Source: Octopus vulgaris (taxonomy: Eukaryota). Taken from it: a stretch of 64,000 nucleotides of DNA. This document shows positions 53,523 through 62,575 of this stretch, one piece after another. The stretch spans positions 159,340,001-159,404,000 of the forward strand of contig OX597816.1 of NCBI GenBank assembly GCA_951406725.2, written 5' to 3'. The notes under the pieces were generated by a model. It saw only the letters and a list, made by a program, of their open reading frames with translations, did not search any database and was not told the origin of the DNA. The position numbers were made by a program, and so were the translations under genes. Position 1 is the first letter of the stretch. Each line of letters opens with the position of its first letter.

Positions 53523-53542
<20 letters not shown>

Positions 53543-54059
53543 AAAAATTTATATATAAGGAACGTGAAATACACGAAAGGACGAACACGGAAAACAGACA
53601 AGTCATTCGAAGCCTTCAATCTCCAGTCAGAAACCGAATCATATATATATATATATATCCACTCACAAGGCTTTGGTTGTCTCGAGGCTATAGTAGAAGA
53701 CACTTGGCCAAGGTGCCACGCAGTGGGACTGAACCCGGAACCATGTGGTTAGTAAGCAAGCTACTTACCACACAACCACTCCTGCGCAACTTGGCCGCAG
53801 GAGTGGTTGTGTGGTAAGTAGCTTGCTTACTAACCACATGGTTCCGGGTTCAGTCCCACTGCGTGGCACCTTGGCCAAGTGTCTTCTACTATAGCCTCGA
53901 GACAACCAAAGCCTTGTGAGTGGATATATATATATATATATGATTCGGTTTCTGACTGGAGATTGAAGGCTTCGAATGACTTGTCTGTTTTCCGTGTTCG
54001 TCCTTTCGTGTATTTCACGTTCCTTATATATAAATTTTTATTCTATATATATATATATA
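53523..54059. repeat. Perfect inverted repeat, ~264-bp arms with 9-bp spacer
   Basis: Arms 53523-53786 and 53796-54059. The identical ORFs on opposite strands in the track (53564+ / 53830-) confirm it. Confidence 0.95.
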
Positions 54060-54066
54060 CATATAT

Positions 54067-54958
<892 letters not shown>

Positions 54959-55277
54959 GGGGGTTGGACAGTAAAATATAAGAAAAGGGCTTCCTCAGAA
55001 AAAGTGAATTCAAACGGAAGAAGCAAGATGAGACAATCGTGGAGGGTGAGGACGACGAAGACGAGGGCGAGAAGAAGAGGACCGTGCTACTCTGGAACCG
55101 TATGGAATTTCCAGTCCTTTGCGCAGCCAACGAGAGATTGTTGGATGATTCGAACGTATGCAAAAAGGTGAAGGAAAAGACAAAATGCAGACCGCGGAAG
55201 AGATGGGCTTCGCCTATGTGGAACAGACAAGTGAAAGAAATAATGAAAAGTAATTTAAAAGTATACAAACAGTTATA

Positions 55278-55892
55278 CAGGGTGTTCAAAAAGTCTCTCC
55301 GCAGTAAGTATTTTATTGCAAAATAGATATTTATAAGATGGTATAAGACTACAAAAGAATATATTAGACTTTACAAGGCTTTAAAAAACTTTATAAGATG
55401 TATTGAAAGTGTCGGCCTTCATTTTCAATACATAAAATTTAATTTCCTTTTTACTGCCGTATCAGCACTTCCTAGGCTGATTTCCGTTTCCTGTGACAAT
55501 TTGCGTTAGGACTTTGACGGGTTTGCCAACAGTTTATCAGAAATATTGGTGAGTGTTTCGTCTGAAAGAACAGTAGGCTTACCGCTTCTTGCTGCATCTT
55601 CCACTGAGCCTGTGTTTCCAAATTTTCTTATCAAATCCCGCACAGTGTCACGATGTGGAACAACGGTATTTGGAAAAGTTTCACTGAACTGAAAAGTTTC
55701 ACAGTCTCTGTGTATTTGTTCCAGCTTAAAACACCTATTCAATTAAAAACATGGTTAGCATGTTGACATGCTGAAGGGTACACAATGACCGAGGGGCAAT
55801 GGCCGACACCCAGCCACCCACGCAGTGACAGCCAAGTTGCGCATGCGCAGGATGAAAAAAATTCACTGCGGAGAGACTTTTTGAACACCCTG
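55278..55892 (-). mobile_element. Internally deleted Tc1/mariner-superfamily element
   Basis: Perfect 28-bp TIRs CAGGGTGTTCAAAAAGTCTCTCCGCAGT with TA TSD. Minus ORF 55506-55742 (F...FP...P.RDTVRDLIRKFGNTGSVEDAARSGKP) is the N-terminal HTH of a transposase; the catalytic domain is missing. Confidence 0.92.
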
Positions 55893-56163
55893 TATAAATC
55901 AGGTTATACCTTTGTTACCAGGAAGACGTGATCTTTTTACATTCACCTCGACACCTGAATTACACACGGACACTTTCGAGACTTAAACATTTTTGAGTAG
56001 ATCACTGCGAAGTACATGGAGGCGAAAGGTGGTCATGTTTGTGGTTGTGTTGGTGGTGGGAGATCAAATCCGAGTGGTGGCTTCTTCCTAGTTTGCGGGG
56101 TGGTGTGTTCATTTCTTTTTTTTTTGTGTGTTTTATTCATGTATGTCATTTAATTTATAACTA

Positions 56164-60138: not shown

Positions 60139-60192
<54 letters not shown>
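60030..60192. repeat. (TACA)n/(CA)n/(TA)n compound microsatellite
   Basis: Directly visible. Confidence 0.95.
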
Positions 60193-60193
<1 letters not shown>

Positions 60194-60196
<3 letters not shown>

Positions 60197-60435
60197 GATA
60201 AATGTTTTATACATAAAGAACGTGAAATACAGGAAGGGACAAACACGGAACACAAACAAATCATTCGAAGCCTTCAATCTTCAGTCAGACACCGAATCAT
60301 CATAGCAAATTTCGCGAAATTTGCTATGATGATTCGGTGTCTGACTGAAGATTGAAGGCTTCGAATGATTTGTTTGTGTTCCGTGTTTGTCCCTTCCTGT
60401 ATTTCACGTTCTTTATGTATAAAACATTTATCCTT
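60194..60435. repeat. Perfect spacer-less palindrome, 121-bp arms
   Basis: Centre TTTCG|CGAAA between 60314 and 60315. The arms match base for base by eye. Confidence 0.95.
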
Positions 60436-60470
60436 ATATTATCGCGGCGTTACGTGCACCCCCCCCGTTT

Positions 60471-60517
<47 letters not shown>

Positions 60518-60601
60518 ATTTCTTTTTTTTTTAAGGCAGTGAATTGGCAGAGTCGTTAGCAAGCAGAGCAAAAGGCTTAGCAGCTATTTGTCCGTCTTTA
60601 T

Positions 60602-62575
60602 GAAATGCAAACAACCATGCATGTTCATGGCCACTTGGTCATCGGCCCCGGAAAACTCCAGGGATGACCACCATTGAATACACTGGTGTCCGGCAAACAC
60701 GATCAACTGCTCCTCTGTGTCCGCGATCGGAGCTCCGGACGTAGGTTCTTAATTGACACAGACGCATAAGTCAGCGTGATCCCAGCGTCAGCAAGGGACC
60801 TCCGTTACGGAAAACGAGGCCAACCTTTAACGGCCGCCAATGGCTCCGCAATCAAGGCGTAAGGTCGCTGCATCCTTTCTCTCAACGTCGGCTCACAAAA
60901 ATACACACGAGCATTTACCATCGCCGATGTCCATCAGCCCATTATCGGGGCAGACTTTCTTCGAGCACACTTGCTATTGATTGATTTGCAGTGGAGACGA
61001 CTCATCAAGAGCAACATGTCTCAGACAATATCTGCACATGTTGCTCTCTGCATAGCAACCGTCTCTCAAACCAAGAACGAATTCTCGAAACTCCTTGCGA
61101 GTCGCCCGACAATCTCCAAACTTACAGCCCGCCACGGAGTGACCCACAACATCCCCACTACCGCTCCCTCCCCCAGTGCACAGCCGCGCACGTTGTCTAT
61201 CACCAGACAAACTTGCTATCGCAAAGGCCGAATTTGACAATATGGAGGCGTTGGGCATTGTTCACCGATCCAGCAGTCCATGTTCGGCACCCCTCCAGGT
61301 GGTACCAAAACCCAACGGAGGTTGTGACCTTGAGAAGATTACCGCCGTCTCAACGCAGACACGACACCCGACTGCTATCCCTATTTCGTACATACAGGAC
61401 TTCTCAGCCCAGCTAGCCGGGTGCTCGGTTTTCTCGAAGGTCGACCTCATCTGACAAAACAAGCCCTGGCTAAAGCAACCATGCTGTCCTATCCTCATAT
61501 GTCAGCTTGGACTGCACTTACAGTCGATGCCTCCGACACAACCATTGGGGGCTTTTGGGATCAGAAAAAACAGTGCTTTTGACAGGGAACTGCTGGCTGT
61601 CCATCTAGGTGTCCGCCACTTTCGCTATTTTCTTGAAGTCCGCACGATTGCAATGTTCACAAACCACTCACCTTTGCTATGAGCAAGCTCTCAGAGCTTT
61701 GGTCTGCACGTCAGCAACGACAGCTATCGACCATTTCTGAGTACACCACGGACATCTAACACATAACTGGAAAAGGCAACCCAGTCGCTGACGCACTCTC
61801 TCGTGCTCTTACCTGCTCTCACACCTAACTAGCTCCAACATCTGAAGGCTTGGATTACGAGGCTATGGCTGCAGCCCAACAGACAGATGACGAGATCAGG
61901 ATCTACGCACTGTCATCACGTCACTTTCCTTGCAGGATGTGCACTTTGGCACCAACGGCACAACCCTACTGTGTGATGCATCCACTGGGAAGCCACGACC
62001 GATTGTCCCATTAGCCTGGCGCGGACTGTCCCACCTGGGTACTAGAGTCACACTTCTTCCGCGGAAATGGTGTTTGGTGCCCCTCTTACAGTGCCAGTAG
62101 AGTTCCTTCCGAACACAAAGTCAGACCCAGATGTCAAAAGGTATCTCACGCAACTGAGAGACAGTGTGGTCTAGTTGCGTCCTATTCCATGTCCACACAC
62201 AGTACACCTAAAACATCCGTACCAAATTACCTCCACACGGCTAAGTTCGTGTTCGTTCGACGTGACACACGACAAAAACCCCTCCAGTCCCCCTACGATG
62301 GCCCATATGAAGTCATATGTCCGGGAGACAAATCGTTCAAACTCCTAATTGGTAGGCAAGACACAGTTTCCATCGATAGATTGAAACCGGTCTGTCTCAA
62401 TATTGACAACCCCGTCCAAGTAGCTCAACCACCAAACAGGGTCGCCCCAGGCAAATCACACCAGTCCTTGGCAAAGAACAGTCACCAAAGAGCCGAGTGA
62501 CGACATGCACGGGCAGGGCAGTTAAAACGCCTTCCCGGTTCCAATGACAGTCAACAGTTCTGTGGAGGAGGTATA
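60602..62575 (+). mobile_element. Decayed Ty3/Gypsy internal region (protease, partial RT, RNase H, integrase C-terminus)
   Basis: RFLIDTDA*VSVIP (protease), AKAEFDNMEALGIVHRSSSPCSAPLQVVPKPNG and FSKVDL (RT), LTVDASD...FDRELLAVHLGVRHFRYFLE (RNase H), FVFVRRD...PLQSPYDGPYEV (GPY/F). Has stops and large deletions. Confidence 0.92.

Follow-up and report, generated by a model that had tools for sequence, protein, structure and literature searches.

A spacer-less 242-bp palindrome in Octopus vulgaris: a probable inverted insertion by a non-autonomous derivative of a Penelope-like element

Penelope-like elements (PLEs) of the EN+ type, which include Penelope/Poseidon, Neptune, Naiad and Hydra, leave partial tandem copies, inverted 5'-truncated copies, a tail of 30–40 bp and a bias toward (TA)n targets, as set out in parts of PMC8557442 and PMC3846280. 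The purified Poseidon protein of Anolis carolinensis (PAc), predicted to form a dimer, cuts AT-rich DNA on both strands and extends both, and its reverse transcription begins at two sites that bound the tail, according to parts of PMC11167929. PLE hammerheads can be of a relaxed form with a bulge before stem II (part of PMC4209133). Octopus vulgaris carries 31 recently active Penelope-like families (part of PMC13282606).

Here we compare these systems with a locus in the window, by which we mean the whole 64,000-nt stretch of Octopus vulgaris DNA that was analysed. As the original prediction had it, 60194–60314 and 60315–60435 are exact reverse complements (121 + 121 nt, spacer 0) that form a 242-bp palindrome, with the fold point between TTTCG and CGAAA. 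We read this palindrome and its one-sided tail, at a probability of about 0.87, as the product of one insertion event in (TA)n by a young non-coding element of the Penelope type, with enzymes from a full-length PLE. The parts of the locus are as follows.

60145..60193, no strand: left half of the (TA)n target, which terminates a longer (TACA)n/(CA)n run in the sequence.
60194..60314, + strand: left arm, the terminal 121 nt of a subfamily Y unit in antisense, directly against (TA)n and tail-free; 99% identical to positions 1–121 of the 704-nt unit in locus L005.
60315..60435, + strand: right arm, the identical 121 nt in putative sense orientation; compared with the unit, the arm–arm joint has neither shared nor added bases.
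60344..60365, + strand: hammerhead-like remnant, CTGAAGA-11 nt-GAAT, which fails the type I hammerhead test.
60436..60474, + strand: tail of ~39 nt, which begins a further tandem unit, is confined to the right arm and is followed by (TA)n; in tandem copies the matching sequence is the unit end just ahead of where the following unit starts.
60475..60517, no strand: right half of the (TA)n target in the sequence.

The strand sense of the arms, deduced from the truncation pattern and not from RNA, is presumptive. The extension at 60436–60474 corresponds to the PLE tail. The expectation that this palindrome and a second one at 53.8 kb are both bordered by (TA)n holds at the left end of the 242-bp palindrome, but the right arm continues into the ~39-nt tail.

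The repeat to which the palindrome arm belongs is dispersed, young and non-coding; the arm is its fixed end, and its full units of ~704 nt stand in tandem. Within the genome searched (2.8 Gb, 227 contigs), a 25-mer of the arm has 399 exact matches, a 27-mer has 117, and a 19-mer common to the sister subfamilies has 2939, with no match for the reversed controls. Three subfamilies are seen, namely Y (the 60.2-kb arm), O (a 53.5-kb piece) and C. Truncated ends, 140 in number, are scattered over nt 50–672, while the opposite end is common to the copies. The 60.2-kb arm had been called a diverged relative of 53560–53642, and it does match 53548–53642, as well as 53940–54034, at 89.5% over 95 nt, the relative being of the sister subfamily O. 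This gap of ~10% is a subfamily difference and not age: each piece is near-identical to its own closest copies (98–99% for the 60.2-kb arm, 95–99% for the 53.5-kb piece).

Two sets of loci were used for a census. Set 1 is drawn from the first 100 of the 117 27-mer matches, which fall in 85 loci; 79 were examined, and four of the six left out are near-neighbours on contig C20. Set 2 is drawn from the first 100 of the 399 25-mer matches, in 74 loci, of which 15 are already in set 1 and 59 are new. Loci with shared flanks (L003/L004; L270/L272/L313), probably segmental duplicates, are retained in the counts. The 79 loci of set 1 comprise 59 solo, 13 tandem and 7 inverted arrangements, the window being counted among the last, and tandem arrays in set 2 reach up to 4 units. 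None of the 59 new loci of set 2 is inverted or has an outer tail. Overall, 7 of 138 loci (about 5%) are inverted, a figure that includes the window, itself chosen because it is palindromic. The predicted targeting of TA is borne out: 131 of 137 loci have (TA)n directly against the fixed end (L300 falls under the identity filter).

Every one of the seven inverted loci has exactly one tailed arm. By comparison, an outer tail is present in 3 of the 72 other loci of set 1, and in 3 of 131 non-inverted loci across both sets; the three are L053, L058 and L096, the last read by eye after the script had missed it. The association of inversion with a single tail in set 1 is strong (Fisher p = 4e-8; p = 3e-7 without the window). 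One-tail inversion likewise occurs in subfamily C (L093 and L140), and unrelated families in the flanks show it too, two of these cases (L065, L116) with a hammerhead core. As a control for inversion itself, 231 stretches (1.12 Mb) contain 167 and 152 copies of two SINEs, with one abutting inverted pair each, of which one is the window's own 53.8-kb palindrome. Copies of the arm are more often palindromic than these other repeats, as had been anticipated (7/138 loci against 2/319 copies, Fisher p = 0.004), a rough control that sets loci against copies.

Inverted loci number 7/79 in the youngest lineage (set 1) and 0/59 in the slightly more diverged one (set 2; p = 0.02), a gap that may reflect palindrome loss over time or the choice of sets. 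Separately, the solo copy at L022 (G000:C14:71.8 Mb) ends on its truncated side in an 8-nt inverted tail remnant followed by (TA)n. It is scored as solo but may represent an inverted insertion whose second arm is very short.

The one-tail pattern bears on two readings in which the element plays no part in forming the palindrome. An assembly or read fold-back artefact, suggested by the perfect arms and the absence of a spacer, is the least credible, since the flank would be mirrored too and a tail on one arm would be impossible. Moreover, in 5 of the 6 other inverted loci the arms differ by 1–3 substitutions, and the two copies of an inverted duplication at 54.07–54.96 kb differ by an indel and 2 substitutions. 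Only slightly less remote is a host process alone, in which a template switch, or a break capped by a hairpin, mirrored a solo copy later. Exact symmetry and a blunt junction fit such a process, as do host-type inverted duplications 6 kb off (53.5–55.0 kb); however, the mirror ends at the fixed end of the element on one side and enters the element's tail on the other, the arms contain no host DNA, and the one-tail pattern is repeated at six other loci. Both palindromes are confirmed at the level of the assembly only. Contigs of public runs are neutral here: among 32 listed of the 558 contig pieces on 60270–60475 none spans the fold, contigs break at repeats, and on 53760–54310 SINE contigs swamp the 53.8-kb fold.

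The insertion we favour would proceed in a few steps. A GIY-YIG endonuclease would cut the TA run on both strands, and each cut end would prime reverse transcription of the element RNA. One cDNA would start at the main site and the other ~39 nt further on, giving rise to the tail; both would terminate early and then be joined head to head. In the window, both cDNAs would have halted at nt 121, within a zone of frequent truncation, to produce a perfect palindrome. Truncated ends are indeed more frequent at unit positions 119–146 than at 147–202 (29 versus 13, p = 2e-6, for a range picked post hoc and ends taken from BLAST). This pile-up overlies a weak stem-loop.

The arms of the seven inverted loci measure 121/121 (the window), 118/132, 647/163, 328/137, 575/315, 57/146 and 178/492 nt. 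At the first six junctions, in the same order, the arms share 0, 4, 2, 6 (one of them mismatched), 4 and 0 nt; the seventh has a 25-nt insert that by eye matches the unit interior. The difference between the arms of a locus ranges from 0 to 484 nt, and the shorter arm is the tailed one in 2 of 7. The window junction, with no shared bases, is the only exactly symmetric one, and its exact fold occurs once genome-wide. A 35-place pattern search for a shared fold hot spot returned only the window and L013, whose junctions are unlike. Fold points had been expected to cluster at one site; instead there is no fixed fold site, because the junctions vary across the seven inverted loci and the window fold is unique.

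A possible if less probable alternative leaves the element and its enzymes unchanged and replaces the second priming event by self-priming, in which a strand folds back and is copied, after which the endonuclease trims the tail from one arm. Self-priming has been put forward for head-to-head Penelope palindromes (part of PMC3846280), and the purified PLE endonuclease cuts its own ORF–pLTR junction (part of PMC11167929). The two window arms are identical and share a variant at position 62 that is absent from all other set 1 loci. Between-arm differences across loci are also fewer (8/1022 sites) than those between tandem neighbours (35/2234) or separate loci (2.0%). However, self-priming would have to close loops of 89–484 nt with 0–6 nt of overlap in four loci, and with a 25-nt insert in a fifth, and it demands that one arm, and no more than one, be trimmed at each of the seven loci. 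In addition, the arms of L013 carry different alleles at a family-variable site, where C is found in 11/97 other copies, although this is a single case. Two separately primed cDNAs are favoured because of these long loops with little overlap, the shorter tailed arm in 2 of 7 loci and the L013 alleles. For the window itself, identical arms with a rare variant fit two cDNAs of the same RNA and, equally well, self-copying or a hairpin intermediate; its symmetry would be either two common stops meeting by chance or the trace of such an intermediate.

The second palindrome contains a piece of the same family. A common origin had therefore been proposed, in which the family forms foldbacks on insertion. 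This region has four parts, including a dispersed ~160-nt repeat at 53657..53925 that we take to be a SINE.

53540..53642, + strand: subfamily O piece in the left arm, 5'-truncated, flanked by two (TA)n runs and without a tail; 96% identical to the O unit in L090.
53657..53925, no strand: SINE mirror pair, two mirrored pieces with a 9-nt spacer, the fold being at the SINE's end.
53940..54042, − strand: mirror O piece, with the same truncation point as 53540..53642 and no tail.
54067..54958, no strand: second inverted duplication (54067–54425 against 54592–54958) of largely single-copy DNA, with an 8-nt indel and 2 substitutions between its copies.

The 53.8-kb palindrome has arms of 273 nt with 1 mismatch, which lies in the outer TA run. 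Each arm consists of (TA)n, 103 nt of subfamily O, a further (TA)n and ~130 nt of the SINE. The family thus accounts for ~103 of 273 nt, and the fold lies about 145 nt from the family piece. The proposal that the family made both palindromes by fold-back on insertion is improbable, even though a family piece is present in each and the near-identical 53.8-kb arms are set in TA-rich DNA, which is expected to be cut by PLE endonucleases. It also gains from the fact that only 1 of 167 copies of that SINE in the fetched DNA stands in an abutting inverted pair, namely the 53.8-kb one. Four observations count against it. First, the fold is at the SINE end and not at the family piece. Second, the two O copies are truncated at one same base next to mirrored (TA)n, and neither has the tail that other O copies (L077, L090) possess. 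Third, inversion is found in none of the other 28 closest subfamily O loci fetched. Fourth, the adjoining single-copy duplication at 54067–54958 contains no family sequence.

The O repeat is probably a passenger in the 53.8-kb palindrome, because of the SINE-end fold, the missing tail and the adjoining single-copy inverted duplication. Formation of foldbacks by the family on insertion is supported for the 242-bp palindrome and not for the 53.8-kb one, which probably arose afterwards as an inverted duplication by the host and carries a solo copy of the sister subfamily. An ordinary solo O insertion would have been followed by two-sided fold-back repair or a template switch at the TA runs.

The first 150 nt of the 54067–54958 duplication have no match elsewhere in the genome search. 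Its left copy is likely the derived one, to judge from sequence comparison, because a related organism has a 596-nt contig that agrees with the right-hand copy both in the indel and in the base at 54257. The 53.8-kb palindrome and this duplication are linked via (TA)n, and together they read as two fold-backs, one per side, joined at AT.

The fold point of the 242-bp palindrome had also been proposed as a hammerhead. That idea does not survive, as CGAAA at the window fold is ordinary element sequence, usually preceded by GAACAGC. A hammerhead elsewhere in the extended consensus was likewise looked for, and the core found there is degenerate. In the arm motif (subfamilies Y and O), GAAT stands in place of GAAA, positions 10.1–11.1 are unpaired and the best stem I has 2 bp. 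Rfam detects no hammerhead in 52–62 kb or in the full unit, only chance matches driven by repeats or hairpins. Core and stem I fail even under the relaxed PLE description given in part of PMC4209133, and we read the motif as a putative hammerhead remnant. Six stretches near the fold, the tail and the core were folded and show no unusually stable structure, with z-scores between −1.0 and +0.8; DNA folded in the cDNA sense is not unusually stable either (z −0.04). Naiads, too, are described as lacking a hammerhead in part of PMC8557442.

The repeat resembles EN+ PLEs in its fixed 3' end and variable truncation, and in its partial tandems, adjacent inverted copy, 30–40-nt tail at one end and (TA)n target (PMC8557442 and PMC3846280, each in part). 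This agreement supports the view that it behaves as a Penelope-like terminal repeat. It differs in having no ORF, nor was an intact hammerhead, typical of most PLE clades, found in it. MRC1, one of the non-autonomous Chlamys elements, is a similar non-coding PLE derivative with pLTR-like and multicopy head-to-tail insertions, but the Chlamys elements belong to another kingdom and have a 3' end like that of an autonomous family, a partner that was not found for the octopus repeat (part of PMC8557442). Animal non-LTR retrozymes are also non-coding tandem units of likely PLE origin (PMC7229834; bioRxiv 10.64898/2026.07.22.740005; both in part). Their monomers measure ~170–400 nt, however, according to part of PMC7229834, against ~704 nt here, and each unit has the defining type I hammerhead that is degenerate in the octopus unit; on these two grounds retrozyme identity is rejected. 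PAc offers a biochemical parallel in its AT-rich target, the cutting and extension of both strands and the two starts that bound the tail. It is autonomous, though, and of a different clade and host, and the relevant part of PMC11167929 does not demonstrate the formation of inverted junctions. A MITE was also considered and rejected, as 131 of 138 loci lack an inverted arm and arm lengths of 57–647 nt are not uniform. Among these categories, the 242-bp palindrome fits best as the inverted insertion of an element derived from a PLE and itself non-autonomous.

The original prediction further suggested looking for an RT/GIY-YIG ORF in the extended consensus. The ~704-nt unit has no RT or endonuclease match, and none of the loci fetched has an RT + GIY-YIG ORF continuous with a family copy; the repeat unit is therefore not an autonomous PLE. 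The autonomous partner was sought with two queries, GIY-YIG and an RT fragment adjoining one family copy. PLE ORF pieces near family copies are inverted or set apart by (TA)n, as are the RT pieces at L144 and L148, where (TA)n intervenes. Young autonomous PLEs that end in (TA)n are present in the genome in at least two families. Family 1 (L181–L198) has many copies and an intact 781-aa ORF with Pfam RVT_1 and GIY-YIG. Family 2 (L229–L248; L230 2711–7190, G000:C8:57.97 Mb) is very young, with ~150 near-identical RT matches scored. Its 964-aa ORF contains RVT_1, and inspection by eye adds a CxxCxxxC cysteine linker and an end that resembles GIY-YIG. The 964-aa element, which we assume to be of the Neptune clade, ends in (TA)n, forms partial tandems and has a degenerate core akin to that of the unit, and its tail starts alike. 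BLASTN of both families against the ~704-nt unit gives no match. The driver that supplies enzymes to the repeat would be a PLE. At L136, an ORF of 933 aa next to a copy of subfamily C was rejected as partner, as by eye it belongs to an endonuclease–RT LINE in the wrong orientation. At L060 1477–2785 (G000:C5:87.64 Mb), a Y arm is joined directly, head to head, to an older Neptune-like 3' end with (TA)n absent; the arrangement may be a chimera made from two templates in one insertion, or it may be coincidental. The supplements to PMC8557442 may name octopus PLE families, this repeat among them.

Two other features lie near the palindromes. A ~625-bp element at 55273–55897 has 33-bp perfect terminal inverted repeats beginning TATACAGGGTG and looks to us like a non-autonomous Tc1/mariner-type element. 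From ~60530–61300 onward the sequence is GC-richer and, by eye, looks like the pol region of a decayed Ty3/gypsy element; the sole open frame of at least 150 codons in 60.5–64 kb has 161 codons.

Two palindromes within 7 kb had seemed remarkable. A self-BLAST for inverted repeats (at least 95% identity, spacer up to 1.5 kb) yields 36 rows in 1.12 Mb, five of them involving the family, in a sample biased to TA-rich neighbourhoods of PLE insertions and with a few loci counted as two rows. Near-perfect inverted repeats are common in this sample. Many of the others belong to unrelated families and border (TA)n at one end while running into an extension at the opposite end. Palindromes of this kind occur at L292, L065, L143, L096, L029, L116, L139, L134 and L146, with a spacer of 0 in L292 and L065 and of 1 nt in L143. 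Palindromes, spacer-less ones included, persist in the octopus genome.

A wider proposal is doubtful, and we advance it tentatively. Inverted PLE insertions may be twin-priming products in which opposite strands always use different RNA start sites, and the family may do this, and go on amplifying in tandem units, without a working hammerhead. Uncaptured (TA)n cuts may lead to host double fold-back palindromes such as that at 53.5–55.0 kb, and PLEs may be a main source of hairpin DNA in the octopus genome. A limited look at the literature, with older Penelope papers outside its range, found no match for Penelope twin priming with inversion and tail, which does not amount to absence from print.

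As an object, the 242-bp palindrome is ordinary PLE debris with a known footprint. Its value as data is modest. How PLE tandem and inverted structures form is named as open in part of PMC8557442, and the one-tail rule, together with variable fold points, provides a countable constraint by which copies in the genome can be tied to the pair of start sites observed in vitro. Near-perfect inverted repeats, at ~1 per 30 kb in the sampled TA-rich regions, could feed dsRNA pathways if transcribed.
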